Below are positions 9,612 through 51,458 of a stretch of DNA of 64,000 bases, piece after piece. How positions within the stretch are numbered: the first letter of the stretch is position 1; each line of letters starts with the position of its first letter. The notes beneath the pieces are model-generated. The model made no database searches, had not been told where the DNA came from, and was given only the letters and a program-made list of their open reading frames with translations. Both the position numbers and the translations under genes were made by a program. The stretch covers positions 2,388 to 66,387 of the forward strand of contig JAUSED010000002.1 in the NCBI GenBank assembly GCA_030650425.1, in the 5' to 3' direction. Origin of the DNA: Candidatus Omnitrophota bacterium. GTDB taxonomy: Bacteria > Omnitrophota > Gorgyraeia > Gygaellales > Profunditerraquicolaceae.

Positions 9612-12587
9612 TTACCTAAACACTATCGACCCTGCCTTACCTTCAACATTTCCCTGTCCACCGTTCACATTGATTGTGCCGGATATCGCTCCGCCCCTGC
9701 CCACGACATCAATCCTTCCGCCCTCTCCGCCTTGGGATGAGCTGGAGCCGCCTTGCGCGTGGATCACCGCTCCTGCTCCGCCGAATTTATCCGCGGATAA
9801 ACTTATCTGCCCGGCGCCGGCGCCTGTTCCTTCTTTTCCGTCGGCAGTAATTGCGCTGTAAATATAAAAATTCCCTCTCGCGTTAAGCTTGATCAGGCCG
9901 CCCTTATTGTTATTTACTCCGTTTGCCTCAATCGAGGCCTTCGGTTCGATATTTATATTGCCCGCTGAAATATCTAATTTTGAGTTTGGCGTATGAGTCA
10001 ACACGCTGTTTGAGCCAACCGTAAGGTTACCGCTGATCGTAATTTGGCCTTCGCCATCCTGTATCAACCTGCCGCCTTTACGCACCACTATTTCCTGACA
10101 ACCCTTATTCACCCCTGCCTTCAGCACCAAGGTAGAGGTATTTTTCCCTGTCCCGTCGCCGATAGTCAGTTTGCGGAAAGAAATTGGTTCATCCGCGTAA
10201 ACCGTAGCCTTACCGGCGATCTTTACTTCCGTGTTTAATCCCGGGGCCTTTCCGCCTAACCAAGAAGCGGCATTACTCCATTTCCCCTCGCCGCTGGCAA
10301 TATAGTCGCTGGATTCTTCTGCCGCCCGCGAACCAAAAGTTTTATCCGAGGTATCAAAAATAGACGGGTCATTGGCGTCGGATATTTTAATCAACAGCTT
10401 TTCTCCGGCTGCCACAGGCTGCCAAAGGTATTCTCCGCTATTGGCTATCTGCCCGGCGATCAGCGTATAATTTTTACCGCCATCGGAAGAATAGGCGATA
10501 TCAAATGGATAAGACGATTCGTATTCTCCGGCCAGCCAAACAATATCTCCTTGGCTATCCGCGCTAAAAGTTTCTCCGCCGTTAGGAGAAACAAGATTAA
10601 TCTTTCCCGGACGGTAATCTAAGGAAAACATCGATAAGCCGTCATTGCGGGAGAAAAAGGGGACTGTCCCCGCAGGGGACTGTCCCCTTTTTCCCGAGAA
10701 ATCCAACCGCGCCTTCAGGCTTGTCCCCGGCTTAAAATCCTTCTTGGAGGCGTAATAAAATTTTTCATTTACGCAGTCTTTCTTAAAACTTACGCCGCTA
10801 TCCGCGGAAACGCTTACGGATAGATCCGCGTTATCCGAAGAAGACATCTTCCATGAAGGTACGAGGATACGTGTCGGCTGATTGCTCGCGGCCAGTTCGC
10901 TTGATAAATAATAACCGCTGGTGGCATCGTCTTTAAGCACAAGTTCTCCGCTGGCTGAAACTTTGGTCCCGCTAAAAACCGCAAGGCTCACGCCCTCCTC
11001 TTTCCCCGTGGCCTCGATCACCGGAAGGGCCTCCGCGAATTTACGCGCGCGGATGGTCCCAAAATACATAATGTTTTTTCCGTTTCCTTCGCCGCCGGAG
11101 CGTAAAGACAAATACCCAGCGCTCGGCGCCGGATCAAACTGATAGCTTGCGCTCGCCTGCGGTGCATCCGTCATCGGAAAAACAGGGACTGTCCCCGAAG
11201 GGGACTGTCCCGTTTTTCCCTCAAATCTTTCAAAAGTCATCTTACCGTTATAAAGGACTATCCTGTAATTATATTTTTCTCCGGTAACCGTTGGCTTGGC
11301 CGCGCTGTCATTCGCCTTCACGATTCCATTGGGAGCGATGCAATGCTCTGCCCCTTTATATATAGAGGAATAAGCAAGGTAAATAGGGCTGTCATAAGAG
11401 GCTTCATTTTTATTCAGGATATCTAAACTGTTTTCAAAACCGCTTGTAAGCTGACAGGAATATTCAATCACCCCTTCTTTGAATTGGAAATTTTTACTGA
11501 TGATTTTAGCCGCGTCCAATTTAATCCCTTCATCACTTATTTCCGCGCTTCCATTTTGCTCGGTGTGGGTTACCCATTTATCTTTGTCTAAGGTGGGGGA
11601 TTGCCCCGCATTCTGCGGGGTCCCGCTTGGGCGGGAAAAATCTTCATAAAAATCAAAGGTCGCGTTCGGATTGGAAAGGTCTTCAGCTTCGCTATTACCA
11701 TAATATAGGTAAAGGGTTACTCCTTCCTTAGGGATCTGCGGAATTTTTACCCAGAACGTGGCTGTGCGGCTGCCTTTTTCGCCTTCTATGCTCTCTCTGT
11801 AAAAGGAGAGTGCTGTTTGGCGGTCAGCCGCGGTAAAACGGATATCTTTAAAATCCGCCAGCGTGTGGCCGTTTACATCTAGATCAACGTCTTTAACCGC
11901 GTCGCTTTCTCCAATTTTTAATTTTAATTGGTAATTATATAAATCCTGAGTGGGGGATCTTTTTATAGTTATTTCTTTACGGTAGAGAAACCCGCTTAAA
12001 GTTGGTTCGCCAAAATCTCCGGCTACCCCTTGAGTGTCGGTATAATTAATATTTACGCGGGAGAGCTTTGCGTCAGCCTCTAAAGTTTGGGCGCGCCAGC
12101 GCAAGCGGTTGCCGTTTACAAAACCGCTTTTCATTGGAACGCCGTTAGTCACCGGATAATAATGCAGGCCGTTGTCCGCGCTTACTTCAAAATTAATTTT
12201 TCCGGTAGCGGTATAATTCGCGGTGATCGATTTTATTTGTCCATCCGTGGCGATGAAACTATCCATAGCATAAACCCCTTGTGAAATTTTCGGGAGGCCT
12301 AAGGTCTGCGCATTATCCGCGCTCCAGATCAACGCTTTCTTTAAAGTCACCACTTCCGCGCTGGCGCAATTCACGAATATCACAAATAAAAAGAGACCCA
12401 AAAAAAACAGAAACAGTTTCCGAGCCAATCGGGAAACTGTTTCCGAGCCAATCGGGAAACTGTTTCCGAGCCAATCGGGACAGTGGGCTTTCACTCCAGT
12501 TATCCTCATCTCTTCTCTTTTCATCTTTTGCCTCTTTTTTTCTGTATCTCTATGATAAATATACATTATTATAGAGTACAAAAACAA
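9612..12587 (-). CDS. Secreted protein with a DUF2341/LamG-like domain (about 960-990 aa). Its C-terminal Gly-rich region resembles the N-terminal region of the giant protein.
   Basis: It has a signal-peptide-like KLFLFFLGLFLFVIFVNCASA. The DUF2341 hallmark is present: …DIRFTAADRQTALSFYRESIEG…TFWVKIPQIPKEGVTLYLYYGNSEA. The C-terminal GGAGAVIHAQGGSSSSQGGEGGRIDVVGRGGAISG parallels the giant protein's N-region. The track's N-terminus (MFLYSIIMYIYH…PDWLGNSFPIGSETVSRLARK) is read straight through the palindromic-repeat array at 12410-12488. The real start is probably inside 12428-12509, for example the TTG at 12428-12426. Confidence 0.6.
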   Translation of the reverse strand: MFLYSIIMYIYHRDTEKKRQKMKREEMRITGVKAHCPDWLGNSFPIGSETVSRLARKLFLFFLGLFLFVIFVNCASAEVVTLKKALIWSADNAQTLGLPKISQGVYAMDSFIATDGQIKSITANYTATGKINFEVSADNGLHYYPVTNGVPMKSGFVNGNRLRWRAQTLEADAKLSRVNINYTDTQGVAGDFGEPTLSGFLYRKEITIKRSPTQDLYNYQLKLKIGESDAVKDVDLDVNGHTLADFKDIRFTAADRQTALSFYRESIEGEKGSRTATFWVKIPQIPKEGVTLYLYYGNSEAEDLSNPNATFDFYEDFSRPSGTPQNAGQSPTLDKDKWVTHTEQNGSAEISDEGIKLDAAKIISKNFQFKEGVIEYSCQLTSGFENSLDILNKNEASYDSPIYLAYSSIYKGAEHCIAPNGIVKANDSAAKPTVTGEKYNYRIVLYNGKMTFERFEGKTGQSPSGTVPVFPMTDAPQASASYQFDPAPSAGYLSLRSGGEGNGKNIMYFGTIRARKFAEALPVIEATGKEEGVSLAVFSGTKVSASGELVLKDDATSGYYLSSELAASNQPTRILVPSWKMSSSDNADLSVSVSADSGVSFKKDCVNEKFYYASKKDFKPGTSLKARLDFSGKRGQSPAGTVPFFSRNDGLSMFSLDYRPGKINLVSPNGGETFSADSQGDIVWLAGEYESSYPFDIAYSSDGGKNYTLIAGQIANSGEYLWQPVAAGEKLLIKISDANDPSIFDTSDKTFGSRAAEESSDYIASGEGKWSNAASWLGGKAPGLNTEVKIAGKATVYADEPISFRKLTIGDGTGKNTSTLVLKAGVNKGCQEIVVRKGGRLIQDGEGQITISGNLTVGSNSVLTHTPNSKLDISAGNINIEPKASIEANGVNNNKGGLIKLNARGNFYIYSAITADGKEGTGAGAGQISLSADKFGGAGAVIHAQGGSSSSQGGEGGRIDVVGRGGAISGTINVNGGQGNVEGKAGSIVFR
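12410..12488. repeat. BIME/REP-like array A: three copies of GGAAAC(T/A)GTTTCC with the 10-bp spacer gagccaatcg, plus a terminal gggacagtgggc
   Basis: cagaaacagtttccgagccaatcgggaaactgtttccgagccaatcgggaaactgtttccgagccaatcgggacagtgggc. Confidence 0.85.
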
Positions 12588-12636
12588 TCGTAAAACTACT
12601 CAATAAGCTTGCGCATATTACTCTACCCCTAAGACT

Positions 12637-12752
12637 GGAAACAGTTTCCAATCTGTGAAGGAAACTGTTTCCATCCCAAAGCGGAAACTGTTTCCGAACC
12701 AATCGGGACAGTGGGCTATCTTTCAGATTGGACATTTCAGATTGGACATTTC
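12637..12752. repeat. BIME/REP-like array B: three GGAAAC(A/T)GTTTCC copies with spacers aatctgtgaa, atcccaaagc and gaaccaatcg, plus gggacagtgggc, followed by a 15-bp direct repeat cagattggacatttc ×2
   Basis: ggaaacagtttccaatctgtgaaggaaactgtttccatcccaaagcggaaactgtttccgaaccaatcgggacagtgggc…cagattggacatttcagattggacatttc. Confidence 0.85.
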
Positions 12753-12764
12753 CCCTCATAAAAA

Positions 12765-14153
12765 TCATCTCACAACCTCCCAATGTCCACCTTTTGCAGG
12801 ACCAATTCGCTTTATTAAACCTTTCTTCTTTAACCGTCGTATATTCTTATCAATGGCCGTAGTGCTAATTCCTATGCTCTTTGAAAGTTCTTCCTTGGAA
12901 ATTACGGGATCCCTTTTTACAAGAACTAGGATTTTCTTCTGGCTTTCTACCAACCCTTCTACCAACCCTTCTACCCACCCTTCTTTACTTTCTTCCCGCA
13001 GGCTATATGATGGCCTACGGAATATAATTCTAAAGAAGGTGCCGCTTTTGATCACCGGATATGGAAGGCCGGATTTCTTCATTAAATCCCTCATCCGCCG
13101 GATACCCATCCCTATGCGCTCTACTTTACCCATCCGGGCAAAAAGATCGGCAATAAGTTCGTTGCGTCGGACCGAAAGATTAATAAGAGAGCGCGGAGTT
13201 AACCCTTCGGGTATTCCTCCCGGATTTCTTATTTCCACGCGGTCTTCATGCACCTCAACCATACTACTCGTTCCCCTCATACTGTAATCGCGATGAATAA
13301 TGGCATTAGCCACGGCTTCACGCAACGCCTCTATAGGCATCTCGTAAATATCTCTGCGATTTACTCCCTGTATTTCACTGCGAACATTAAGGTGCTTCTC
13401 GAGAAAAGTGATTGCCCTATTAAACTGGGTTAGAAGGTCATCCTGAACATCTTCCCGATCATAAATGTGGATTCTGTTTTTTCCTTTAAAAGCCGCTAGG
13501 ATCATTTCGCACTGCAAGATATGCCGCCGCGGCTTTTTTGCGAAGAAAAGCACGCCGGCATTTTTTATGTGCTCACCATCGCACAGATTAAGGCTTGAGA
13601 GAATTCTCTGCGTGTCTATCGAAGAAACATGAATATTTGCTTCTTTGAAAAATTCATTTATTTTTGATTCATCAATATCGCTAAAATTTGCTTCTGTATT
13701 TATTTGTTCTTCAAATGATGATTTAAAAGCTTGCTTGAATAAAAGTTCTATCTCCCTGCGGTTCATCTTTTGCGTCACTGCGTCCAACCGCCTAAAATAG
13801 CCATCACCGCAACTGTAGGGTTTATCCATTCCCTCTTCTATATCAATAACAATAATCGTCTCCACCTGTGCAATCCTTTTAATTGAAATTTGTGGTTCGC
13901 AATGACGGGCGATGTCGATAATTTCCGCTTTGAGTTTATTAGTTAATTTCTCGCCGGTAACCCTCCCGTCATCTGTAATGCCAAGAAGAATATAGCCGCC
14001 TTTTGTATTTGAAAAGGCGGTAATATCCCGGTTAATTCTGGAAGTATAATGTTCCTTAAATTCAACCGTCAATCCTTCGCCTTCAGATATTAGTAACCTT
14101 AGGTTTTCTGATTTCATATAATGCCCGTTACGCATCAATAATTTTGTTCTCAA
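12765..14153 (-). CDS. Putative ATP-binding transcriptional regulator: an AlbA_2 (Schlafen-like) DNA-binding domain, an HATPase_c_4 domain and a C-terminal winged HTH
   Basis: The N-terminus LLISEGEGLTVEFKEHYTS…ITAFSNTKGGYILLGITDDGRV is typical of AlbA_2 domains. The C-terminus …KEELSKSIGISTTAIDKNIRRLKKKGLIKRIG reads as a winged helix. The gene carries an in-frame 15-nt tandem repeat (ccaacccttctac ×3 at about 12935-12990) that encodes LVEGLVEGLVE. Confidence 0.55.
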   Translation of the reverse strand: MRTKLLMRNGHYMKSENLRLLISEGEGLTVEFKEHYTSRINRDITAFSNTKGGYILLGITDDGRVTGEKLTNKLKAEIIDIARHCEPQISIKRIAQVETIIVIDIEEGMDKPYSCGDGYFRRLDAVTQKMNRREIELLFKQAFKSSFEEQINTEANFSDIDESKINEFFKEANIHVSSIDTQRILSSLNLCDGEHIKNAGVLFFAKKPRRHILQCEMILAAFKGKNRIHIYDREDVQDDLLTQFNRAITFLEKHLNVRSEIQGVNRRDIYEMPIEALREAVANAIIHRDYSMRGTSSMVEVHEDRVEIRNPGGIPEGLTPRSLINLSVRRNELIADLFARMGKVERIGMGIRRMRDLMKKSGLPYPVIKSGTFFRIIFRRPSYSLREESKEGWVEGLVEGLVESQKKILVLVKRDPVISKEELSKSIGISTTAIDKNIRRLKKKGLIKRIGPAKGGHWEVVR

Positions 14154-14766: not shown

Positions 14767-14769
14767 ATT

Positions 14770-16158
14770 TTAAATCGGGAGCACCACGTTAATCGTAGTT
14801 CCCTTTCCGAGTCCGGACTCGATATGCATTGAACCGTCTAAAACTTCCACCCTCTCTTTTAAACCTACAAGCCCTAAACGCAGCTTATCTTCCCTGCGCC
14901 TTAACAATCTCTGCGTGACTAACTGGTAATCGAAACCCCGGCCATTGTCATGATAAAATAATTCCAGGGAATTTTTATTCCTATTCAAACGCACCTCGAC
15001 ATTTTTAGCCTTAGCGTGCTTAGCCATATTCGTAAGCAGCTCCTGAATTATACGATAAATTAATAAACTGTACTCCGGGGGTAATTCAAAATTGTTATCT
15101 GCCTTCTGAAAAATATATTCCACTCCGGTAAGTTGTTTCGTCTCTATAAGCAGCGACTCAAGGCTCTCTAATAACCCTACCTCGTCTAAATCCGGCGGCC
15201 TAAGCAAAAAAGCTATATTGTGGCTTTTATCAATAAGCGTTGAAGCTATCTTTTTACATTCTTCAACCTTTGTAATTAAATCTTCCGGGGACACATTGCT
15301 TTTAAAGCAATGTGTCCCCGGAAACCCTGCTAACTCTTGTGAGATCAGCCCCAAGTAAATCTTCAGCGCGCTTAAATCCTGGCCCATTTCATCATGCACC
15401 GCTGTGGAAAGTTTTTTGCGTTCACTCTCCTCCATATTGATCAAGCGGTTAAAAAGCTGCTGGCGATAAGAGTGTTCTTTTATCCTGCGCCGGTATACTG
15501 AAACCGCGATCAGCGTCCCGATAAGCAGCGCGGCCATTAAACTAAGCCTCAAGAAAAGAACCGCCTGCTCCTTATCCGCATTAGCCAAAAACATCTGCCG
15601 CTCAACCTCTTGCAGATTAGCCTTACCCATAGAGCTATCCAGGAATTCGTCTATTTTATAAACGCGGTTTTCAAACGTCATCAGCAGATTATTCACAGTA
15701 TCGCTCGTTTTGTCGGATTGCCCCAGATCAACCAATTCCACTATTTTTGCGCCCAACGCCAGAAGCTCATTGAAAGACGCGGTTATCTGATTTGCCCAAT
15801 CTTTCTGCTGCGCCAGATAAGCGCTATCTTGGTAAATCTTAAGCTGTTTTTTAAATTTATCCCCGGCGCCTAAGATGCTATTTATGTTGACGGCCATAGG
15901 CAGGGCGCCCAGATAACGCGACGATTTCCAATATACATAGTTACGCACACCCATCGCGTAGATTGTATTGCTTATCCGCATTTCAAGTACCGCTCCTTCA
16001 AGCCTAAGGCTATGCTTTCCTAAATCTTCGATTTTTCGGCTAAGCCCGTTGATCTGAGAAATGGAGACCAAGCCGATTACCAACGTAAGCAGAATTAAAA
16101 ACGCGAAAGCAAAGAGAAGTTTTTTTTCCTTAAAATTTATCGGCTTTATATTTTCCAT
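14770..16158 (-). CDS. Sensor histidine kinase (HisKA_3/HATPase; NarX/UhpB-like) with N-terminal TM segments
   Basis: The H-box is AVHDEMGQDLSALK. The ATPase region reads NVEVRLNRN…FYHDNGRGFD…GLVGLKERVEVLDGSM. An in-frame palindromic insertion at 15285-15321 encodes GTHCFKSNVSP. Confidence 0.85.
   Translation of the reverse strand: MENIKPINFKEKKLLFAFAFLILLTLVIGLVSISQINGLSRKIEDLGKHSLRLEGAVLEMRISNTIYAMGVRNYVYWKSSRYLGALPMAVNINSILGAGDKFKKQLKIYQDSAYLAQQKDWANQITASFNELLALGAKIVELVDLGQSDKTSDTVNNLLMTFENRVYKIDEFLDSSMGKANLQEVERQMFLANADKEQAVLFLRLSLMAALLIGTLIAVSVYRRRIKEHSYRQQLFNRLINMEESERKKLSTAVHDEMGQDLSALKIYLGLISQELAGFPGTHCFKSNVSPEDLITKVEECKKIASTLIDKSHNIAFLLRPPDLDEVGLLESLESLLIETKQLTGVEYIFQKADNNFELPPEYSLLIYRIIQELLTNMAKHAKAKNVEVRLNRNKNSLELFYHDNGRGFDYQLVTQRLLRRREDKLRLGLVGLKERVEVLDGSMHIESGLGKGTTINVVLPI
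15285..15321. repeat. Inverted-repeat element GGGGACACATTGC-TTTTAAA-GCAATGTGTCCCC, in frame inside the histidine-kinase CDS
   Basis: Perfect 13-bp arms. It is related to the GGGGACACTTTCC…GGAAAGTGTCCCC family at 27154, 41334 and 42980. Confidence 0.8.
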
Positions 16159-16165
16159 TTATACT

Positions 16166-16270
16166 GGAAACTGTTTCCAATCTGTGAGGGAAACTGTTTC
16201 CGAGCCAATCGGGAAACTGTTTCCCGAACAACTCGGAAACTGTTTCCGCTTTGGGATGGAAACTGTTTCG
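16166..16270. repeat. BIME/REP-like array C: five GGAAACTGTTTC(C/G) copies with 10-bp spacers
   Basis: tggaaactgtttccaatctgtgagggaaactgtttccgagccaatcgggaaactgtttcccgaacaactcggaaactgtttccgctttgggatggaaactgtttcg. It fills the whole gap between the secretin stop (16272) and the kinase start (16158). Confidence 0.85.
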
Positions 16271-16271
16271 C

Positions 16272-18335
16272 CTACTTTTGACTTTTCTCTTCTTGCCATT
16301 TCTCGAACTCTTTGACACGCTGCAGCGCCTCTTTGGTCCAGTCATCGTCGGGATCACCGTAGGAAACACGCTTGCGCCAGTAATCCAGGGCCTTAGCGCT
16401 ATCCCCTTTCCCTTCGTTAAATAAAGCTAAGTTAGCATAGGCTGCCGCGTAATCCGGATTAACGGAAATTGCCTTAAGATACATCGCTTCGGCCTCTCTG
16501 GGCTTACCCTCCTGTTCATAAATAATCCCTAAATTATTGTAGGCCGGAGCTAATTTATTATCCAATTGAATGGCTTTAAGGAAAAATTCTTTAGCATCCT
16601 TAGGGTTAGCATCGGCTTGCGCGCGCAGCCCTTTTTGATAATAATCATTGGCATTATCCTGAAGCAAAAAGTGACTGTCACTTTTGTGACTGTCACTTTT
16701 TTTCTCTCCCGATGGTAAATCCATAGTTGCCTCTTCCAATGCCTCATCCCGAGCCACCTTTTTTTGCAGGTTTTCGGGAAGATACTCATTGGGAATAAAC
16801 TGCGTTATTTTCTTGCCTTTTAAATCCATATCCCCGCGGATGATATGCGGAGTAATAAAGATGATAACCTCGGTTTTGGTAATCGATTTATCGCGGTTGC
16901 TGAAAAGCGCGCCGAGAAACGGAATCTTGGAAATTATTGGCACCCCTACAATATCATCAGTCTCCTCAGTCTTAGTCATCCCGGCAAGCACAATCATCGT
17001 TCCGTCCTTAACCTTGACTGTCGTCTCTGACTGTGAAGTTTGAACAATCGGCACAAGGCTCCCCAACGCTGTGGTGAGCGTTTGTTTAACCGAGCTGACT
17101 TCGGGTTTAAGCTTCATCGTGATAAAACCGTCGGCACCGATCCGGGGGACGATTTTTAATTTCACGCCCACATCGACAAACTCTACCGACTCCGAAGTAA
17201 CTGTGGTCGAGGTTGCCTGGCTCTGCGTCTGAGTGATATAAGCGTCACGCTCGCCAACCATCAGGTTGGCTTCTTCATTGTTCACAATCGCGATCCTCGG
17301 CTGTGAAATGACATTGGTCTTGCCGTAAGTTTCCAGGAATTTTATTAAAATATGATTTCCGCTGGTCGTGGTATTCACGAGGATCTGCTGGTAGTTGGTC
17401 AAAGTAATAGGAAAGTAACCGGTAAAGGTAATTCCATTATTTACCGCGGCTTTCATGATCTCCTGCCAATCTATCCCTCTTTGAAACTCTTTGCTTAAGG
17501 TCAGCTCAATTACATCCGCTTCCACATAAACCTGCCGGGATTCCTCATCTAACTCTCTTACCAGCCTTTCTATTTTCTCCATCTTCTTCGGCAGGTCGCT
17601 GACGATCGCCTTTTGGCTTCTTTCGTCAATAATCACCTCGCCTGTCCCCGGGGTGATCGCCGCGTTCAATTGGGTTTTGGCGTCGGCGGCCTTAGCGTAA
17701 TTAAGGTTAAATACCGACGTACCCAGCGGCTGGTCCAGTTCAGTAATCGTTTCCTTCAATAATTTCAGCTTTTCCGGTGTATCGATAAGTATGACTGTGC
17801 CGCTTGTTTCATCGACGACGATTTTACCTACGTCGGATTTTAATTGCCCCAGCGCGTTAAAAATCGTCGCGGGCTTGGCATAAGTAAGCTTAACCATTTC
17901 TAAGTTTCTCTGGTCAATGTAATCTTTACCGTAAATTTTCTTGTATTCTGCCGCGGTCATCACATAATAAACGTTTCCCTTTTTGTACGAAGCAAGGTCC
18001 TGCGTAAGCAGAATGATATCCAAGACATCGTCAAATACAACATTACTCAAATAGATGGTAATGCGCCCGGATATGCCTTTACTGGGGACGATGGTCTTTC
18101 CGGTTTTAAGGGAGATGATCCGCAAAAGTTCGACAATTTCAACATTCTTCAGGTCGAGAGAGATTTTATCTTGCTCAAGCGCTCCCTTTTGACCCGCCTG
18201 TTTTACCTCGGCGGCGTAAGTCGAAAGCGGGGCAATCAAGAAAAAGGTGACAAAGGTGACAAATAGGGACAGCGCCAATTTTTTCAATAGCCTTTGGATT
18301 AGTAAAAAATGGTCGCTGTCCCTATTTATCCTCAT
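16272..18335 (-). CDS. Secretin (GspD/PilQ/MshL family) with a C-terminal TPR-repeat extension
   Basis: The secretin core reads …VISQPRIAIVNNEEANLMVGERDAYITQTQ…IPFLGALFSNRDKSITKTEVIIFITPHIIR. The C-terminal TPR units read YYQKGL…AYNNLGIIYEQEGKPREAEAMYLKAISVNPDYAAAYANLALF. An in-frame doublet palindrome at 16670-16697 encodes KSDSHKSDSH. Confidence 0.85.
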   Translation of the reverse strand: MRINRDSDHFLLIQRLLKKLALSLFVTFVTFFLIAPLSTYAAEVKQAGQKGALEQDKISLDLKNVEIVELLRIISLKTGKTIVPSKGISGRITIYLSNVVFDDVLDIILLTQDLASYKKGNVYYVMTAAEYKKIYGKDYIDQRNLEMVKLTYAKPATIFNALGQLKSDVGKIVVDETSGTVILIDTPEKLKLLKETITELDQPLGTSVFNLNYAKAADAKTQLNAAITPGTGEVIIDERSQKAIVSDLPKKMEKIERLVRELDEESRQVYVEADVIELTLSKEFQRGIDWQEIMKAAVNNGITFTGYFPITLTNYQQILVNTTTSGNHILIKFLETYGKTNVISQPRIAIVNNEEANLMVGERDAYITQTQSQATSTTVTSESVEFVDVGVKLKIVPRIGADGFITMKLKPEVSSVKQTLTTALGSLVPIVQTSQSETTVKVKDGTMIVLAGMTKTEETDDIVGVPIISKIPFLGALFSNRDKSITKTEVIIFITPHIIRGDMDLKGKKITQFIPNEYLPENLQKKVARDEALEEATMDLPSGEKKSDSHKSDSHFLLQDNANDYYQKGLRAQADANPKDAKEFFLKAIQLDNKLAPAYNNLGIIYEQEGKPREAEAMYLKAISVNPDYAAAYANLALFNEGKGDSAKALDYWRKRVSYGDPDDDWTKEALQRVKEFEKWQEEKSQK
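16670..16697. repeat. Doublet palindrome GTGACTGTCAC-tttt-GTGACTGTCAC inside the secretin CDS, in frame
   Basis: agtgactgtcacttttgtgactgtcactttttt. Confidence 0.85.
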
Positions 18336-20496: not shown

Positions 20497-20505
20497 TTTT
20501 CCTTT

Positions 20506-20564
20506 CGAAACTGTTTCCATCCCAATCGGGAAACTGTTTCCGAGCCAATCGGGACAGTGTCCCC
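20506..20564. repeat. BIME/REP-like array D: GAAACTGTTTCC, GGAAACTGTTTCC, and the hybrid GGGACAGTGTCCCC
   Basis: cgaaactgtttccatcccaatcgggaaactgtttccgagccaatcgggacagtgtcccc. Confidence 0.85.
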
Positions 20565-21924: not shown

Positions 21925-22034
21925 CTATCTAAAATTGCATTAAATCATCCTGAAGAAAAAATCTGGGGAAAGCAATTATTTTTGTAAAAAAAGGGGGACG
22001 GTTATATTTTTCGGGTTTTCTGATGCCAAAAAAA

Positions 22035-22073
22035 GGTGACGGTCACGAAATGCGTGACTGTCACCTTTTTTTT
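22035..22073 (-). terminator. Rho-independent terminator built from paired GTGAC(N)GTCAC palindromes and a T8/A8 run; bidirectional
   Basis: aaaaaaaGGTGACGGTCACGaaatGCGTGACTGTCACCtttttttt, immediately 3' of the lipoprotein gene stop at 22081. Confidence 0.75.
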
Positions 22074-23073: not shown

Positions 23074-23118
23074 TTGAGATATAATACTACTTTGGCCAGG
23101 TTGTGTCAACCGGAAAAT

Positions 23119-23180
23119 GGGGACTGTCCCCCGCCTTTTGGGGACTGTCCCCATTTTCTTCGTGACTGTCACCTTTTTTT
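23119..23180. repeat. Doublet GGGGACTGTCCCC-cgcctttt-GGGGACTGTCCCC, then GTGACTGTCAC and a T7 run. It looks like a terminator for the PilZ gene.
   Basis: ggggactgtcccccgccttttggggactgtccccattttcttcgtgactgtcaccttttttt. Confidence 0.8.
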
Positions 23181-24000: not shown

Positions 24001-24010
24001 TGCGGGAAAA

Positions 24011-24047
24011 GGTGACAGTCACGCACTTCGTGGACTGTCACCTTTTC
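24011..24047 (-). terminator. Paired-palindrome terminator after folE
   Basis: GGTGACAGTCACGCacttCGTGGACTGTCACCttttc. Confidence 0.6.
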
Positions 24048-26009: not shown

Positions 26010-26050
26010 TTTATAGACAGTTAAACGCGTCCCACTTTCCCGATTACCTC

Positions 26051-26133
26051 GGAAACAGTTTCCCTCACAAGTTGGAAACAGTTTCCATTCTAAAGGGGAA
26101 ACTGTTTCCGAGGTAAGGCGGAAACTGTCCCCC
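26051..26133. repeat. BIME/REP-like array E: four copies (GGAAACAGTTTCC ×2, GGAAACTGTTTCC, and the hybrid GGAAACTGTCCCC). It overlaps the last 14 codons and the stop codon of folC.
   Basis: ggaaacagtttccctcacaagttggaaacagtttccattctaaaggggaaactgtttccgaggtaaggcggaaactgtccccc. Confidence 0.85.
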
Positions 26134-27529
26134 GGGCTTCTCCTACTACATATAATGAACCGGTAACTAAAATTAAGTCTTGTTTTTCGGTAAGCATTAA
26201 AGCTAGATCTTTTGCCTCTTTGACGCTATTTGTAATATGCGTTTCTTTACCTTTGAAGTATTTTTTAAGAACCTCTGGCTCGGTTGCGCGCGGGTTATTG
26301 GATTTAGTCAATATAATCTTATCGGCTAAAGCATAAAGTTCTTGCGCTACCCCTTTTATGTCCTTATCACCTGAGATACCTAACACCAGAATCAAATTCC
26401 GGTAATAAAATCTTGTTTGAATCGCCTTTTTTAAAATCGCGGCGGAAGCGGCATTTTGCGCGCCGTCTAAAACAATAACCGGCTGCTTAGCTACCAATTC
26501 GCAGCGGCCCGGCCATAAAGTATTATAAAGCCCTCTCCTCAGAGAATCAACCTCGACTTTAATTGCGTGGCCTCGCAAAGAGCCGATTGCGGCTAAGGCA
26601 GTTACGGCATTCATCACTTGATGCGCTCCAATTAATTTTATCTTTAGATTTTTATAATTTCCATAAGGACCGCTGATTCTAAAATTATCTTCATTCCCGC
26701 TATATTCTATATCTTTTCCTACTACCAATAATCTTGCTCTTTCTTTTTTACATTTACGCCTGATAACCTCCAATGCCTCTTTTTTTTGCGGAGCGGAAAT
26801 TACAGTAGAATTATATTTAATTATTCCGGATTTTTCCGAAGCTATCTTCTTTAGCGTATGGCCTAATTTATCCATATGTTCATAACTTATCGGAGTAATC
26901 ACGCTTACTAAAGGATTAACCACATTCGTCGCGTCTAATCTTCCGCCTAAGCCGGTCTCTAAGACCGCTAAATCAACTTTTTTTTCTTGAAAATATAAAA
27001 AGGCTAAAGCTGTGCAGGCTTCAAAAAAGGTAAGTCGGCCGTAAATCGAACTACGGTTATATTTTTCTATCGCGGGTTTTAATCTTTTCACTAAACTGGT
27101 GAGCTTAGGCTTAGAAATCATCCCTTCAAAGTCGGCCAGGGACAACGCATTGACAGGGGACACTTTCCTTTGGGCAGCAGGAGACACTTTCCTGCAGGAG
27201 TTTACGACTTGCTGGAAAGTGTCCCCTGCCAGTGGAACCAAAATCCTTATTCGTTCGCGAAAATCGATTAGATGCGGAGAGGTGTAAAGCCCGACCCGGA
27301 AACCAGCTTCCCTTAATATATAGGTAATAAAAGCAGCTGTGGAACCTTTACCTTTTGATCCGGCTACGTGGATACATTTAAGGAAGCGCTCAGGGTTATT
27401 AATTGAACTCAGGAATCCTCGGAAGCGCTTTAAATCCAGCGCTTCTTTATAGGGATAGCTGGAAAGCTTTTCGTAGTTAACCAAAGATTCCAGGTAGCGG
27501 ATTGCTTCTTGGTAGGACATACTAAACAA
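26090..27529 (-). CDS. folC: Bifunctional folylpolyglutamate synthase/dihydrofolate synthase, carrying an in-frame inverted-repeat insertion
   Basis: The Mur-ligase/FolC motifs are VAGSKGKGSTAAF and …LETGLGGRLDATNV… The insertion at 27154-27228 encodes …LAGDTFQQVVNSCRKVSPAAQRKVSPV… The C-terminal tail …ALPRKQFPL comes from the repeat array. Confidence 0.85.
   Translation of the reverse strand: MFSMSYQEAIRYLESLVNYEKLSSYPYKEALDLKRFRGFLSSINNPERFLKCIHVAGSKGKGSTAAFITYILREAGFRVGLYTSPHLIDFRERIRILVPLAGDTFQQVVNSCRKVSPAAQRKVSPVNALSLADFEGMISKPKLTSLVKRLKPAIEKYNRSSIYGRLTFFEACTALAFLYFQEKKVDLAVLETGLGGRLDATNVVNPLVSVITPISYEHMDKLGHTLKKIASEKSGIIKYNSTVISAPQKKEALEVIRRKCKKERARLLVVGKDIEYSGNEDNFRISGPYGNYKNLKIKLIGAHQVMNAVTALAAIGSLRGHAIKVEVDSLRRGLYNTLWPGRCELVAKQPVIVLDGAQNAASAAILKKAIQTRFYYRNLILVLGISGDKDIKGVAQELYALADKIILTKSNNPRATEPEVLKKYFKGKETHITNSVKEAKDLALMLTEKQDLILVTGSLYVVGEARGTVSALPRKQFPL
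27154..27228. repeat. Inverted-repeat element (GGGGACACTTTCC … a degenerate GGAGACACTTTCC copy … GGAAAGTGTCCCC), in frame in folC
   Basis: tgacaggggacactttcctttgggcagcaggagacactttcctgcaggagtttacgacttgctggaaagtgtcccctgcc. Confidence 0.85.
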
Positions 27530-31795: not shown

Positions 31796-31824
31796 CCCAT
31801 GTACACCTACGCGGTATACATGGG
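31796..31824. repeat. Hairpin CCCATGTACACC-tacgcg-GTATACATGGG, related to the 45121 palindrome (shared core ATGTACACCT…GGTGTACAT)
   Basis: Read directly from the sequence. It lies between the KamA stop and the EF-G-like start. Confidence 0.6.
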
Positions 31825-40993: not shown

Positions 40994-42099
40994 TAACCTC
41001 CATACCCCGCGATTACAGCCTGGCCTAAAGAAATACCCGCGTCATTGCAAGGCAAATATTGATGCGTAAAAACCTGAAAACCTTCTTTGTTTAATAAACC
41101 CGAGCTCATCTTGAGTAAAACTTTATTCTGAAAAACTCCTCCGGATAAAGCGATTTTATTTGTCCTATGTTCTTTTCTTAAAATCAGCGCTATTTTCACC
41201 ATCATTTCAGCTACGCCTTGATGGAAACGCCAAGCAATCTTTTCCCGAGATATCTTTAACTTTAAATCTTTGATAATTTGTTTAAGAATATTAGTCGGAT
41301 CTAAAATATACCCGCCTTTATCCTTCCTTATCACAGCAGGGGACACTTTCCTACGCGCGTTTACTATTTGTTGGAAAGTGTCCCCTGCTGTTGACGCCTC
41401 GGCTAATTTTTCCAGCTCAATTGCCAGCTCTGCTTCAAACGCCGCTTTCCTTTTACCCAAAACAAGGCTTCCTGCCGCGTCAAAAAGCCTGCCCATACTA
41501 CTGGCTAAAGGAGAATTGATCCCTGATTTATATATTTTATTTAAAATCTGTTTTTTATCTACGCTCTGATCAAAATTAAGCCAAGCTGCCAGCGTTCTCC
41601 ACGGTTCGAATATCGCCCGCTCTCCTCCAACCAGAGGAATTTCTTTTAAATGCGCTAAGCGCGAGAATTTTTGATAATCACAGAGCAAAACCTCTGCTCC
41701 CCAAATAGTATTATCCGTTCCTAAACCAGTCCCGTCAAAAGCCAAGCCGATTATTTTTTGGTTTTCCAGCCCATTTTCCGCCATGCAAGAAGCGATATGC
41801 GCATGGTGATGTTGAACATGTAGTATATAGTACTTAACAGGCAGGGATTCGCTAAATTTAGTTGACTGATACTCAGGGTGTAAATCGCAGGCGATAATCT
41901 TAGGATGTTTTTTAAGGAAATGTTTTGCGTCTTTCTCAAAAGCCGCTAAATCCTTAGGCCTGCTTAGGTCCGCATGCAGCGGGCTAAGATAAGCGCCATC
42001 CCCTCGCGCGAAACAAATAGTATTCTTGGCCTGGCCGCCTAAGGCCAAAACCGTATTCTTTAATTTAAAAGGCAGCCTAACTTCTAGTGTTTTCATCAA
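40993..42099 (-). CDS. HypF-like carbamoyltransferase consisting only of the C-terminal Kae1/YgjD-like domain. The acylphosphatase, Zn-finger and YrdC domains are absent.
   Basis: The C-terminus KIALSGGVFQNKVLLK…PCNDAGISLGQAVIAG and the HHHAHI motif match the HypF C-terminal domain. The ORF is only 368 aa. An in-frame inverted-repeat insertion at 41334-41390 encodes STAGDTFQQIVNARRKVSPAV. Confidence 0.7.
   Translation of the reverse strand: MMKTLEVRLPFKLKNTVLALGGQAKNTICFARGDGAYLSPLHADLSRPKDLAAFEKDAKHFLKKHPKIIACDLHPEYQSTKFSESLPVKYYILHVQHHHAHIASCMAENGLENQKIIGLAFDGTGLGTDNTIWGAEVLLCDYQKFSRLAHLKEIPLVGGERAIFEPWRTLAAWLNFDQSVDKKQILNKIYKSGINSPLASSMGRLFDAAGSLVLGKRKAAFEAELAIELEKLAEASTAGDTFQQIVNARRKVSPAVIRKDKGGYILDPTNILKQIIKDLKLKISREKIAWRFHQGVAEMMVKIALILRKEHRTNKIALSGGVFQNKVLLKMSSGLLNKEGFQVFTHQYLPCNDAGISLGQAVIAGYGG
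41334..41390. repeat. Inverted-repeat element CAGCAGGGGACACTTTCC…GGAAAGTGTCCCCTGCTG, in frame in the hypF-like gene
   Basis: cagcaggggacactttcctacgcgcgtttactatttgttggaaagtgtcccctgctg. Confidence 0.85.
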
Positions 42100-42916: not shown

Positions 42917-42979
42917 ATTCTACATTCTCTGTAGGGACAGAACATTGTTCTGTCCCTACACCATTTGGTGTATCCATGG

Positions 42980-43044
42980 GCAGTAGGGGACACTTTCCGT
43001 CAGGGCTATCAGGAACCTCTTGAAAGGAAAGTGTCCCCTACTGC
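42980..43044. repeat. Inverted-repeat element GCAGTAGGGGACACTTTCC…GGAAAGTGTCCCCTACTGC (19-bp arms). Its right half supplies the last 13 codons and the stop of the DUF2156-like gene.
   Basis: gcagtaggggacactttccgtcagggctatcaggaacctcttgaaaggaaagtgtcccctactgc. Confidence 0.85.
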
Positions 43045-44854: not shown

Positions 44855-44863
44855 ATTCATTAA

Positions 44864-45159: not shown

Positions 45160-45166
45160 AAGAAGA

Positions 45167-45568: not shown

Positions 45569-45571
45569 GCG

Positions 45572-47160: not shown

Positions 47161-47162
47161 TT

Positions 47163-49335: not shown

Positions 49336-49337
49336 AA

Positions 49338-50915: not shown

Positions 50916-50925
50916 TCTTTACTCC

Positions 50926-51393
50926 CTATCGATCATTAGCACAAGCTTTTAATAATTCTTTCACCTTCGCCACCACTTCTTCAACCGTATTTAACTTGAT
51001 CACCCCGGGAATATCCCAAGAACCAAGAGTGATCACCGGAATCCCAAACTGAATGCAATAGGCGATTTCCGAAAGTGTACCCGCTCTCCCGGGCAAGGCA
51101 ACCACCACATCCGCAGACTTAACTACCAAGACGTTTCTGGCTAAACCCATTCCAGTAGGTATAGCGATATCCACAAATTTATTAGCATCGGTTTTGTTGT
51201 AACTCGGGATAATACCTATAGTTAGGCCACCTTCAGCCTGAAAACCAGAACAAACCGCCTCCATTACTCCACAAAGCCCACCTGAAACGAGTATATCAGC
51301 CACTTTAGCGAGTTTTCTGCCCAAATTTTTAGCAACCTGCTCCACTTCTGGCGTACAGGTTCGGCCACCGATTACACTAACGATTTTTTTCAT
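50926..51393 (-). CDS. TIGR00725-family protein (LOG/SLOG-like Rossmann fold)
   Basis: IVSVIGGRTCTPE…GGLCGVMEAVCSGFQAEGGLTIGIIP…VALPGRAGTLSEIAY…. Confidence 0.55.
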   Translation of the reverse strand: MKKIVSVIGGRTCTPEVEQVAKNLGRKLAKVADILVSGGLCGVMEAVCSGFQAEGGLTIGIIPSYNKTDANKFVDIAIPTGMGLARNVLVVKSADVVVALPGRAGTLSEIAYCIQFGIPVITLGSWDIPGVIKLNTVEEVVAKVKELLKACANDR

Positions 51394-51422
51394 TTACGCT
51401 ATCCCACTTTCCCGATTAGCTC

Positions 51423-51458
51423 GGAAACAGTTTCCGCTTTGAGATGGAAACAGTTTCC
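51423..51458. repeat. BIME/REP-like array F: GGAAACAGTTTCC ×2 with the spacer gctttgagat
   Basis: tcggaaacagtttccgctttgagatggaaacagtttcc. Confidence 0.85.

Follow-up and report, generated by a model that had tools for sequence, protein, structure and literature searches.

Palindromic repeats of an Omnitrophota chromosome

The window is a 64,000-nt stretch of a Candidatus Omnitrophota chromosome (assembly GCA_030650425.1, contig JAUSED010000002.1, positions 2,388-66,387 of the forward strand). Within and between its genes, which include those for a DUF2341 protein, a secretin-TPR protein, a histidine kinase, a Mur ligase and MnmE, lie short palindromes of three variants, and all the sites that an earlier note on this DNA had given for them exist (Table 1). 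The sequence GGAAACWGTTTCC, of the class GGAAAC-W-GTTTCC, is present in 15 exact copies against 0.00 expected from 100 dinucleotide-preserving shuffles of the window, and GGNNACWGTNNCC has 20 matches against 0.18 expected. The GGAAAC copies form six arrays with a period of 23 bp, which Tandem Repeats Finder also reports at 12410, 16152/16188, 20507 and 26051. Sequences of the form GGGAC-N-GTCCC and GTGAC-N-GTCAC occur six times each with approximately none expected, mostly as doublets in which a hairpin lies between an A-run and a T-run; GTGACNGTCAC has 6 matches in the window against 0.00 expected and GGGACNGTCCC has 6 against 0.01, including those at 11185 and 11201, which had not been listed before.

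Table 1. Coordinates of the palindromic features in the window, and the RAYT loci of related genomes
Feature	Position	Strand	Description
Exact copies of GGAAACWGTTTCC	12432, 12455, 12637, 12660, 12683, 16166, 16189, 16212, 16235, 20529, 26051, 26074, 26097, 51423, 51446
Degenerate end copies of the GGAAAC unit	12409, 16258, 20506
REP-like array A1	12409..12488	+	three 23-bp units and head GGACAGTGGGC
REP-like array A2	12637..12716	+	three units and head GGACAGTGGGC; spacers aatctgtgaa, atcccaaagc, gaaccaatcg
REP-like array A3	16166..16270	.	five units, no head; two-armed palindrome centred on third unit
REP-like array A4	20506..20564	+	two units and palindromic head GGGACAGTGTCCCC
REP-like array A5	26031..26132	-	four units; head GGAAAGTGGGA (minus strand)
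REP-like array A6	51403..51458	-	two units and head GGAAAGTGGGA
D1, GGGGACTGTCCCC doublet	10644..10702	.	A-run and T-run flanks; in frame within DUF2341 protein gene
D2, GGGACTGTCCC doublet	11178..11218	.	in frame, same DUF2341 gene as D1; not listed in the earlier note
D3, GTGACTGTCAC doublet	16666..16701	.	in frame; encodes KSDSHKSDSHF
D4, GTGAC doublet	22028..22072	.	20-bp-arm hairpin, A/T-run flanks; z = -7.0
D5, mixed array	23113..23178	.	two GGGGACTGTCCCC and one GTGACTGTCACC, spacings 21-22 bp
D6, GTGAC doublet	24006..24047	.	between folE and DUF4870 gene
Three inverted copies of head motif GGAAAGTGTCCCC	27156..27229	.	in frame within Mur-ligase gene
Inverted head-motif doublet, GCAGCAGGGGACACTTTCC ... 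GGAAAGTGTCCCCTGCTG	41333..41391	.	inside ORF 40993-42099
Inverted head-motif doublet	42980..43044	.	gene junction
Perfect 20-bp-arm hairpin, GGGGACAC/GTGTCCCC	15283..15323	.	in frame in histidine-kinase gene
RAYT loci with bracketing units	L026, L037/L003, L070, L071/L072, L073/L074, L076		related genomes

Architecture of the GGAAAC unit and its arrays

The 13-mer (P) is a perfect palindrome of odd length, two 6-bp arms around a central W. The AC(T/A)GT core had been taken for a fixed loop of defined size, but the palindrome is continuous through it, so that the core belongs to the stem. By itself P can form at most a 5-bp stem with a 3-nt loop, and single units fold weakly as DNA (-4 to -6 kcal/mol). 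The unit is oriented, P(13)-N5-AATCG, and terminates in a conserved head module, either GGA(C/A)A-NNG-GGG or the palindromic GGGACA(G/C)TGTCCCC. The consensus of 67 head-bearing units is GGAAAC-t-GTTTCC-aanccaa-TCG-GGA(c/a)A-gtG-gg, with T at the centre of the head strand in 53 and A in 14. Stop codons are absent from every module in all six frames, such that insertions with a length that is a multiple of three survive inside open reading frames.

As had been noted, more than one array contains the spacers gagccaatcg, aatctgtga(a/g) and atcccaaagc/gctttgggat; the alternation of orientation described with them is not strict, the layout being tandem at 12409, 20506 and 51423 and two-armed at 16166 and 26051. 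Both of the sequences proposed as hybrids between variants are present. While GGAAACTGTCCCC at 26120, the outermost unit of A5, is a hybrid, GGGACAGTGTCCCC at 20551 is the conserved terminal head module.

A1, in which a first unit of AGAAACAGTTTCC is followed by two of GGAAACTGTTTCC, each with gagccaatcg after it, lies in frame within the signal-peptide n-region of the minus-strand DUF2341 gene, as judged from the reading frame and the N-termini of the orthologs. A2 has a conserved 14-bp direct repeat (12721-12752) on one side and the DUF2341 gene's promoter-like region on the other. The whole of the 113-nt gap between the stop codon of the secretin-TPR gene (16272) and the start codon of the histidine kinase (16158) is taken up by A3, which has a fold z-score of -7.8, and A4 lies between the stop codon of the AAA_22 gene and the start of the next gene. 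The final ~14 codons of the Mur-ligase gene, together with the stop, fall within A5, whose head faces the start codon of mnmE. A6 is located between tRNA-Arg(CCG) and a SLOG-family gene, leaving 8 nt after the 3′ end of the tRNA and 9 nt before the ATG.

Doublets and in-frame inserts

The doublets at 22035, 23119 and 24011, proposed to be hairpins followed by T-runs, do fold into long hairpins with A/T-run flanks (z-scores -5.6 to -7.0). D4 is found 9 nt after the stop codon of the PKD gene, in a terminator-like position at the end of the transcription unit, and D5 directly follows the PilZ gene and, in the gene direction, directly precedes a sequence that agrees with the sigma-70 consensus at 11 of 12 positions (TTGACA-17-TATTAT, 23109-23081). 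Their structure and position suggest that these hairpins may act as terminators. The closest relative (L067) shares the doublet D6, loop included, at the orthologous junction. Of 53 GTGAC and GGGAC copies, 44 have A as the middle base on the coding strand, indicating strand polarity.

Alignments with orthologs verified the in-frame insertions, which the earlier note had also proposed. D1 encodes GKRGQSPAGTVPFF, with ~9 residues inserted relative to all orthologs, and D2 encodes GKTGQSPSGTVPVF, with 14-16 inserted; D3 falls in the hypervariable linker that joins the secretin and TPR domains. The 20-bp-arm hairpin in the histidine-kinase gene adds 11 residues, FPGTHCFKSNV, which are missing from most orthologs. 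The three head motifs in the Mur-ligase gene are likewise an insertion relative to its orthologs, with other inserts at the same site in L067 and L068, and the peptide that they encode (AGDTFQQxVN..RKVSPA) is also that of the doublet at 41333-41391. Adjoining the doublet at 42980-43044 is a 15-bp-arm palindrome, TGTAGGGACAGAACA, at 42930-42960. The hairpins at 15283, 27156-27226, 41333-41391 and 42980-43044 are related to the other palindromes and add to the sites given in the earlier note.

Distribution amongst related genomes

Arrays with the same 13-mer and 10-nt spacers are found at 41 loci in at least 12 Omnitrophota genomes, bearing out the claim of a dispersed REP/BIME-type family as opposed to a local duplication. 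The GGAAAC unit is present in at least 12 species with GC contents from 36 to 64%; such exact conservation of the 13-mer over this range is stronger than selfish REPs usually show, and a site with a host function would fit it as well. Among the intergenic arrays classified, 31 of 36 lie between co-directional genes, and the heads show no strong bias in orientation relative to the genes (26 against 16).

Orthologous junctions differ in their content. That between the secretin-TPR and histidine-kinase genes, filled by A3 in the window, is empty (10-30 nt) in ~11 relatives, carries P-head-loop-head-P in L054, L055, L059 and L061 and has unrelated palindromes in L047, L050, L052 and L058. The junction that holds A4 is only 5-6 nt long in nine relatives and contains three GTGAC doublets in L047. 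The Mur-ligase and mnmE genes overlap in L068 with no element, are separated by a GTGAC doublet in L067 and by a GGAAAC array in the window. In L067 doublets occupy 7 of 10 junctions of a string of housekeeping genes that is tightly packed in the window. That equivalent junctions may be empty, filled or filled by another palindrome family indicates that the elements insert, although the comparison with L067 did not give precise insertion boundaries or a target site, since this closest relative is just 84% identical at the protein level.

Counting paired against single-arm variants, the test that the earlier note had set for covariation of the arms, did not refute it: over ~0.7 Mb, 123 of 129 GGNNACWGTNNCC sites are palindromic and 6 are not. 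The arms are paired as had been claimed, but they fall into just three discrete, internally uniform classes (AA/TT 117, GG/CC 4, TG/CA 2; 154/7/46 in a shorter frame), which reflect common descent and not many independent compensatory events. The GGGG and GTGA classes are plentiful in L047 and L067 and missing from most array loci; the 13.5 kb of L067 has 14 GTGAC copies and no GGAAAC.

A RAYT gene bracketed by GGAAAC units

No RAYT gene is present within the 64-kb window, in agreement with the earlier note, which had predicted such a partner elsewhere. In seven related genomes the gene for a 160-residue HUH/Y1 protein has P-spacer-head units within 3-45 nt on either side, inverted so that their heads face inward. 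One of these loci (L070) is in the same assembly as L067. The protein matches Pfam Y1_Tnp (E = 3e-14), and four homologs score 81-92 bits in the NCBIfam REP_Tyr_transpos equivalog, for which the cut-off is 80; the NCBIfam IS200 model gives the protein 16.5 bits, short of its cut-off of 55. The best match in the PDB, though weak (E = 0.014), is to 4ER8, E. coli TnpA_REP, with an alignment spanning the HUH, WQxR and YxxxNP motifs, none of which varies among 120 homologs. The gene is directly downstream of comM in six of the seven genomes, the constancy of place that would be expected of a single-copy RAYT inherited vertically.

Of the three classes only GGAAAC flanks RAYT, GTGAC/GGGGAC doublets doing so in 0 of 7 loci examined. 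That all three variants make up one family, as proposed, is therefore unsupported for the GGGG and GTGA classes, whose architecture (A/T-run doublets) and distribution are different.

Origin of the elements

The palindromes are real, dispersed and insertion-polymorphic mini-elements of an uncultured Omnitrophota bacterium. The GGAAAC arrays are probably REP/REPIN-type non-autonomous elements, in BIME-like clusters, of an Omnitrophota RAYT system. The functional unit is oriented, with P, five variable bases, AATCG and the head in that order, and in related genomes two such units, inverted, stand on either side of the single RAYT gene; the dispersed REPIN-like form has the same layout, but with a loop of 6-45 nt in place of the gene. 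On the model of E. coli TnpA_REP and IS200/IS605, the HUH/Y1 enzyme may recognise the folded unit on single-stranded DNA and cut and rejoin adjacent to it, so that single units, or blocks of several, are copied into short gaps between genes and into permissive, loop-coding stretches within them. Copy number could then change through slippage or recombination between the 23-bp units. Such cleavage and transposition and the growth of the arrays are inferred, as would be any effect on the host. The GGGGAC and GTGAC doublets would be sister hairpin elements, insertion-polymorphic, stop-free and strand-polarised like the GGAAAC arrays, with A/T runs by which they mimic bidirectional terminators.

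It seems unlikely that the hairpins evolved in place as RNA elements of the host (intrinsic terminators, attenuators or 3′-end stabilisers) and resemble one another through convergent selection for stable stems and not mobility. The strong folding of the doublets with A/T-run flanks (z -5 to -7), the positions of D4 at a transcription-unit end and of D5 before a near-consensus promoter, and the preference for A at the coding-strand centre, expected if the RNA strand matters, would all suit such a role. However, convergence does not explain identical stems at unrelated loci and in different species, several copies are inside reading frames that require read-through, and the doublets of L067 occupy most junctions of a run of genes that the window has tightly packed. 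A simple terminator scan found no excess of sites (25 compared with 20.6 ± 5.7 in shuffled sequence), and a terminator role may in any case follow from insertion without explaining where the elements came from.

The 13-mer is a perfect dyad, exact in at least 12 species that span 36-64% GC, many heads precede a start codon by 2-45 nt, and A2 has a conserved direct repeat on one side and a promoter-like region on the other; these features would be consistent with operator- or enhancer-like sites to which a dimeric protein binds, for instance a global regulator or a nucleoid protein, in arrays that are regulatory and conserved for the host. We regard this as quite improbable given the variable occupancy of orthologous junctions, the mixed head orientation, arrays that adjoin unrelated housekeeping and tRNA genes or lie in frame inside genes, the lack of any recurring regulator gene adjoining the arrays and the bracketing of a transposase gene in seven genomes. 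Accumulation of DNA-uptake signals, like the Neisseria DUS or Pasteurellaceae USS, by biased uptake through a type IV pilus/secretin system encoded in the window is hardly credible. Short exact words that are strongly over-represented, variants resembling dialects, inverted pairs that mimic terminators, in-frame copies, secretin genes in the window and comM beside RAYT all recall it, but uptake sequences are non-palindromic where known and spread by point mutation and recombination, not as arrays phased at 23 bp in which spacers and heads are conserved, or by insertion of whole elements into otherwise empty junctions, and the association with RAYT supplies a dedicated mechanism.

Comparison with known systems

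The GGAAAC family is previously undescribed and of the known REP/RAYT kind, with RPE-like in-frame insertions, rather than a new kind of system. As with E. coli REP/BIME, its short palindromes cluster where co-directional or convergent genes leave short gaps, and its RAYT, like that of E. coli (TnpA_REP, YafM; PDB 4ER8), is an HUH/Y1 protein flanked by inverted units. The core, however, is a perfect 13-bp palindrome and not the imperfect ~35-nt stem of E. coli REP, the GTAG tag is absent, and the 23-bp phasing, semi-conserved 10-nt spacer and separate terminal head have no counterpart there. BIME classes of E. coli are defined by the binding of IHF or gyrase.

REPIN-RAYT systems have reportedly been described by Bertels and Rainey in Pseudomonas and other bacteria. 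The Omnitrophota system shares with them a single-copy, vertically inherited RAYT with conserved synteny (comM), inverted doublets (P-head-loop-head-P) and a highly uniform master sequence. It differs in its host, a candidate phylum for which no coverage was found in the literature searched, in its many tandem arrays in place of doublets, in the frequent in-frame insertions and in a 13-mer that stays the same between species whose GC contents lie far apart. REPIN-RAYT systems are also the subject of the RAREFAN preprint (10.1101/2022.05.22.493013). The REP super-families in the survey PMC3733652 are marked by a GTAG or CGTC tag, and the Omnitrophota units have neither. The same paper, in its background section, describes in-frame insertion of Rickettsia palindromic elements (RPE) into genes that stay open, and the Omnitrophota palindromes similarly add short peptides in permissive loops. 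RPE are 100-150 bp long and CGTC-tagged, in contrast to the 36-80 bp of the Omnitrophota elements. To our knowledge RPE have no dedicated transposase, whereas the main Omnitrophota family has RAYT.

Neisseria dRS3, ATTCCC-N8-GGGAAT, is a site at which IS110-type elements and phages integrate and is not known to be linked to a RAYT; dRS3/NIME arrays resemble those of Omnitrophota in being intergenic and built from a short, conserved inverted-repeat word with semi-variable spacers. With IS200/IS605 (TnpA Y1 HUH) the system shares the enzyme superfamily, subterminal hairpins beside the gene, strand-polarised elements and, as far as comparison with a closest relative of 84% protein identity allows, no target-site duplication. 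Unlike IS200/IS605, the Omnitrophota RAYT is not multi-copy but single-copy and syntenic, and the non-autonomous units far outnumber the gene.

Copy number and anatomy of the repeat unit

A census of all odd palindromes in the window found three over-represented types only, GGAAAC, GGGAC and GTGAC. GGAAACWGTTTCC has 15 exact copies against 0 expected, in six arrays (A1-A6) spread over 39 kb; GGNNACWGTNNCC has 20 copies against 0.18 expected, and GTGACNGTCAC and GGGACNGTCCC have six each against approximately none. The coordinates reported in the earlier note are all correct and its listed sites were recovered, although two GGGAC copies and several related hairpins had been overlooked. The ACTGT that it described as a fixed loop is in fact part of the stem, since the 13-mer is a perfect palindrome about its central W.

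The anatomy of the unit was read from the window arrays and from 41 loci retrieved with the pattern P-N10-P, where P is the palindrome GGAAAC-W-GTTTCC. The unit is oriented, with P followed by five variable bases and then AATCG (or TTCG; AAAGC less often), and its 23-bp period is reported by Tandem Repeats Finder. Arrays end in a conserved head, either GGA(C/A)A-NNG-GGG or the palindromic GGGACA(G/C)TGTCCCC, and the consensus of 67 head-bearing units is GGAAAC-t-GTTTCC-aanccaa-TCG-GGA(c/a)A-gtG-gg. On the head strand the centre base of P is T in 53 of these units and A in 14, so that the element is polar despite its dyad. Covariation of this base with head position 29 was rejected, centre T being seen with both G and C heads. 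Degeneracy of the outermost units is confined to the outer base (AGAAAC, CGAAAC, GTTTCG). Judged from the spacers, the arrays are part tandem and part inverted. Heads often face one another over 6-45 nt, giving the form P-head-loop-head-P; others point outward around one or two P units, and the lone head word GGAAAGTGTCCCC forms inverted doublets. Direct reading of the sequence found no stop codon in any module in any of the six frames.

At one related locus, L038, two adjacent reciprocal hybrid units, GGACCCTGTTTCC and GGAAACAGGGTCC, are each non-palindromic and are exact reverse complements of one another, which, going by the sequences, looks like a compensatory change between neighbouring units.

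Positions of the features discussed, in window coordinates unless a related locus (L) is named
Feature	Position	Strand	Observation
Two GGGAC copies	11185, 11201		overlooked earlier
Mixed GGGGAC and GTGAC array	23113-23178		21-22 bp spacing
Array	26033-26127		47-nt arms
Inverted doublets of lone GGAAAGTGTCCCC	27156-27226, 41339-41385, 42986-43038
Perfect hairpin in histidine kinase (HK)	15283-15323		+11 aa
Head doublet in Mur ligase	27156-27229		insert
ORF sharing the Mur-ligase insert peptide	40993-42099
Doublet in hypervariable linker	16666-16701
True ATG of DUF2341 gene	near 12521
HK ATG	16158		7 nt beyond last unit
ORF with first ATG inside array	19837-20520		likely start near 20499
Fragment gccgtcattgcggga(g)aaaa	about 10640 and 23990		precedes two hairpin doublets
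14-bp direct repeat TTTCAGATTGGACA	12721-12752		2.3 copies
Schlafen/AlbA_2 gene	12765-14153	-
ORF of >3,190 aa	2-9598	-	runs off left window edge
Tandem repeats in ORF 2-9598	431-1236, 2519-3288		315-318 bp, 81-88% identity
Hairpin TTGCAACCTTATGTACACCT/AGGTGTACATAAGGTTGCAA	45119-45161		perfect, 20-bp arms
GGTGTACATGGG hairpin	near 31800		rSAM/EF-G gap
gyrB with intein	60699-63770	-
Reciprocal hybrid units	L038, 2061-2096
Head-P-head elements	L004, 1983, 3099, 4242; L011; L022		inside giant ORFs
RAYT bracketed by units	L026, L037/L003, L070, L071/L072, L073/L074, L076		inverted orientation

Distribution and insertion at operon junctions

In a collection of species-representative genomes P-N10-P was found at 41 loci from at least 12 genomes, nearly all of them Candidatus Omnitrophota MAGs that come from different sites; the window's own genome is not included in these loci, and the GC content of the array loci is 36-64%. 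The GGAAAC family is therefore lineage-wide, a dispersed family as the earlier note proposed rather than a local duplication.

Orthologous loci were compared, 25 for the HK region (61-74% protein identity) and two that are syntenic with the mnmE region (84% and 76%), and gene order is conserved across them. The secretinTPR/HK junction is filled completely by five units in the window, is empty (10-30 nt) in approximately 11 relatives, and holds P-head-loop-head-P in L054, L055, L059 and L061 and unrelated palindromes in L047, L050, L052 and L058. The AAA22/hyp junction, 5-6 nt long in nine relatives, carries an array in the window and three GTGAC doublets in L047. At Mur/MnmE the genes overlap in L068, with a GTGAC doublet in L067, the closest relative of the window, and a GGAAAC array in the window itself. 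GTGAC doublets occupy seven of ten junctions in L067, and those junctions are mostly 0-12 nt in the window; the folE/DUF4870 doublet, loop included, is common to both. Since junctions that are empty in some relatives are filled in others, both kinds of element insert, and short operon junctions are recurrent insertion targets.

Of 36 intergenic arrays with both neighbours known, 31 lie between co-directional genes, two between convergent and one between divergent genes. The heads point with the genes in 16 cases and against them in 26, and this speaks against the arrays acting as promoters or terminators in an orientation-dependent way. The mixed orientation, together with the presence of arrays inside ORFs, also led to the dropping of a reading of GGAAAC-N15-CGG as an ECF-sigma or other promoter.

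The kinase/regulator (HK/RR) junction is 5-7 nt in most relatives and has small inserted genes elsewhere (L062, L064, L047 and L045), including a GIY-YIG-like ORF with its own flanking palindromes (L064), a 430-aa AAA ATPase (L047) and a 1.5-kb insert (L045); it is a hot spot for selfish genes. Another palindromic family, GTCATTGCGAG...CGAAGCAATC...GATTGCTTCG...CTCGCAATGAC, lies in frame just after the secretin-TPR start codon in L045, L052, L055 and L056, and in other relatives in intergenic gaps (secretinTPR/HK of L050, L052 and L058). The fragment gccgtcattgcggga(g)aaaa is found in the window.

Insertion within coding sequences

In-frame inserts, as proposed in the earlier note, are confirmed by ortholog alignments for the DUF2341 protein, the HK and the Mur ligase. 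In the DUF2341 protein each of the two GGGGAC doublets adds 9-16 aa relative to the orthologs. The perfect hairpin in the HK has a different element at the same site in L044 and L045, and the Mur-ligase site of the head doublet has the GTGAC-derived 'KRKSDSHF' in L067 and yet another insert in L068; the peptide of the window insert recurs in a second ORF. The HK loop, the Mur-ligase loop and the secretin signal peptide have been hit independently by different families in different species. Array A1 occupies the n-region of the DUF2341 signal peptide, where its 78 nt preserve the reading frame, and the true ATG was placed from the conserved promoter-like region and the position of the start codon in relatives. 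In other species arrays lie inside ORFs of more than 8 kb, and giant ORFs carrying elements were seen in L004, L011, L022, L023, L029 and L036.

Inside giant ORFs a 17-18-bp direct repeat, CACCGCCGAGGAGGCAC, coding for GASSAV or ASSPV, stands on either side of the head-P-head elements; it could have arisen as a duplication upon insertion, or could be a linker motif that recurs in the giant protein. The HK start codon lies close to the last unit and has no Shine-Dalgarno sequence, and for the ORF whose first ATG is inside an array the true start is likely to be the ATG that follows aaaggaaaa. ORF callers will mis-set the start codons at 16158 and 20499.

A RAYT partner in related genomes

All-against-all clustering of 1077 ORFs from the array loci gave no recurrent neighbour gene. 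One protein, encoded in array locus L026, matches Y1_Tnp (E = 3e-14). After removal of upstream read-through it has 160 aa, with the motifs HIH, GHVWQSRY and YVEQNP, and together with three homologs it passes NCBIfam NF047646 'REP-associated tyrosine transposase' (RAYT) at 81-92 bits (cut-off 80); the Omnitrophota proteins fail the IS200 equivalog NF033573 (16.5 bits, cut-off 55). The best solved structure is E. coli TnpA_REP (4ER8), a weak match (E = 0.014) aligned through the catalytic motifs. Members of the family at E <= 1e-10 number at least 269, those with a name being all from Omnitrophota and one of them called RayT by JGI, and the HUH, WQxR and YxxxNP motifs are invariant in 120 members. 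Most of the protein clusters are on one to three contigs.

In seven related genomes the RAYT gene is bracketed by inward-headed P-spacer-head units, 3-45 nt from the start and stop codons, so that a partner of the kind the earlier note proposed to look for outside the window does exist. In six of the seven it lies directly downstream of comM, and one of the bracketed loci, L070, is from the same assembly as L067. Such inverted units around a RAYT constitute the defining REP-RAYT arrangement, and the dispersed P-head-loop-head-P form is a REPIN, a leftover with the loop in place of the RAYT gene. The RAYT of L075 is divergent (56% identity), with rearranged and degenerate flanks. The 64-kb window has no RAYT homolog, and a search with a profile of 120 homologs, which covered every ORF of 50 aa or more in all loci and the window, found known RAYT genes only. 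The kinase-regulator insert of L047, considered as a possible transposase, was rejected as it is the AAA ATPase.

Relationship between the three palindrome classes

The earlier note had placed the three arm variants in a single family with co-varying arms. The pairing of the arms stands, for the classes share the frame GG-NN-AC-W-GT-NN-CC and 123 of 129 such sites in approximately 0.7 Mb are palindromic; the single co-varying family is only partly supported, as only three discrete classes are seen. There are several links between them. GGGGAC and GTGAC copies lie together in one array, array A5 ends in a hybrid, the head contains GTGTCCCC and that of L075 has GTGTCAC, and an element in L068 has another core but retains the spacers of the arrays (aagccaatc, gctttgagtt) along with a GGGGACAC head. 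The GTGAC and GGGAC copies are moreover strand-polarised, A being the centre base in 44 of 53 when the coding strand is read. On the other side, the RAYT is flanked by the GGAAAC class only, the architecture of the doublets differs from that of the GGAAAC arrays, and doublet copies number 27 in L047 and 14 in L067 with none in most array loci. A second RAYT serving the doublets was also considered and rejected, the profile search having found known RAYT genes only. A shared origin of the three classes is plausible, while a shared enzyme is unproven. It is rather unlikely that GGAAAC, GGGGAC, GTGAC, the GGAAAGTGTCCCC head doublets and the GGGACGGTTCTC type form one modular system of a comM-linked RAYT, with stop-free cassettes written routinely into coding sequence at recurrent hot spots. 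Were that the case, the system would generate variation in protein linkers and signal peptides throughout the lineage, and possibly also ORF fusions contributing to the giant Omnitrophota genes.

The 21-kb locus L047 has 27 copies of GTGACNGTCAC and 23 of GGGACGGTTCT, an extreme local density of hairpins. The loop of its doublets is always 7 nt long, and on the coding strand 24 of 27 copies have A at the centre.

Folding and possible roles

As RNA, neighbouring units are predicted to pair into long hairpins (z -2.6 to -7.8), and the stems of the doublets are 13-20 bp long and include pairing of the A run with the T run. A lone unit folds weakly as single-stranded DNA, whereas folding of the REPIN form is strong; P-head-loop-head-P of L055 folds at -21.5 kcal/mol (z = -6.3), and the same form occurs at L054, L059, L061, L008, L014, L015 and L021. 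Pairing of adjacent units as a selected structure was rejected, because neighbouring centre bases are not preferentially complementary. Terminator-like structure is present at D1-D6, the GGGGAC and GTGAC doublets with A-run and T-run flanks. D4 comes after the last gene of its unit, D5 comes before a sequence that matches the sigma-70 consensus at 11 of 12 positions, and three doublets are inside ORFs. Terminator-like matches were not enriched over shuffled sequence in a scan of the window. Judging from structure and position, a role as terminator or RNA stabiliser is possible for some copies.

Gene content of the window

Nearly all ORFs of the window are on the minus strand and the GC skew is negative throughout. 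The genes are chromosomal, among them two secretins, an HK and LuxR-type regulator pair, mnmE, folE, a Mur ligase, purH, EF-G and carB, together with an intein-bearing gyrB and four tRNAs. The scattered tRNAs and the arrays had suggested a phage origin, which is ruled out by the chromosomal gene content and by the lack of a phage match, megablast of positions 12000-17000 against 50,697 phage records giving none. An Rfam gathering scan returned the four tRNAs only and no known RNA family for the repeats.

Several other features were observed. The gyrB intein (Pfam Intein_splicing, E = 2e-19) lies between the GyrB and Toprim domains, and the ORF at the left edge, with its tandem repeats, is probably part of a very large surface protein typical of Omnitrophota. 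The Schlafen/AlbA_2 protein also has HATPase_c_4 and winged-HTH domains; its gene follows the response regulator in the window, lies between kinase and regulator in L056/L057 and is present as fragments in L042 and L043, so that it changes position among relatives. The TTTCAGATTGGACA direct repeat is kept in L046, L054 and L061, directly 3' of the LuxR-type response-regulator gene, and is followed by a conserved promoter-like stretch, ttgagtagttttac...tataat, before the DUF2341 gene. The repeat is a putative operator of the neighbouring two-component regulator. The TTGCAACCTTATGTACACCT/AGGTGTACATAAGGTTGCAA hairpin, between tRNA-Val and the next gene, is related to the GGTGTACATGGG hairpin, and the two may represent another small repeat family or terminators.

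Implications for Omnitrophota genomes

REP/RAYT systems have been characterised mainly in Proteobacteria, and are documented here in the uncultured phylum Omnitrophota, whose bacteria are ultra-small and possibly predatory. The anatomy is unusual, with a perfect 13-bp palindrome, 23-bp phasing, a separate head and no GTAG/CGTC tag, and the 13-mer word is identical across species of 36-64% GC. The main added value lies in the pervasive in-frame insertion and its consequences for genome annotation. As the arrays and doublets are free of stops in six frames, predicted ORFs become longer or are fused, spurious start codons arise and real proteins gain extra peptides; in MAG annotation the DUF2341 signal peptide, the Mur-ligase C-terminus, the HK and the giant ORFs are examples. 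The recurrent hits on the same protein loops by different families provide a natural map of permissive sites, and the recurrent insertions could serve as a strain-typing marker in metagenomes.

Comparison with known systems

The REP/BIME interpretation of the earlier note is supported for the GGAAAC family, the missing RAYT having been found in relatives. The system has the defining features of REP/REPIN-RAYT systems, with the RAYT seen in relatives only: an over-represented, dispersed palindrome mainly outside genes, a RAYT flanked by inverted repeats (here in seven related genomes) and, as in REPINs, inverted doublets forming a long hairpin. E. coli BIMEs are marked by Y and Z REPs of alternating orientation, joined by defined linkers, and by binding of IHF or gyrase; the orientation of units in the Omnitrophota arrays is part tandem and part inverted. 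IS200/IS605 elements match the IS200 equivalog and are multi-copy, whereas the Omnitrophota gene fails the equivalog and has conserved synteny. The inserts resemble the Rickettsia RPE, which likewise lie within intact ORFs as insertions relative to orthologs. A literature search gave no relevant paper on the 13-mer, the other palindromes or palindromic, RAYT or REPIN elements of Omnitrophota, and the preprint on Omnitrophota giant genes does not mention palindromes, hairpins or transposases. In the REP super-families of Di Nocera et al. 2013 (PMC3733652), one end of the stem-loop bears a defining tetranucleotide, GTAG or CGTC. This tag is absent here, with no GTAG, CTAC, CGTC or GACG in the 37-nt consensus of the 67 units. 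In the terms of PMC3733652, the Omnitrophota system resembles the RAYTs that are flanked by their own terminal inverted repeats.
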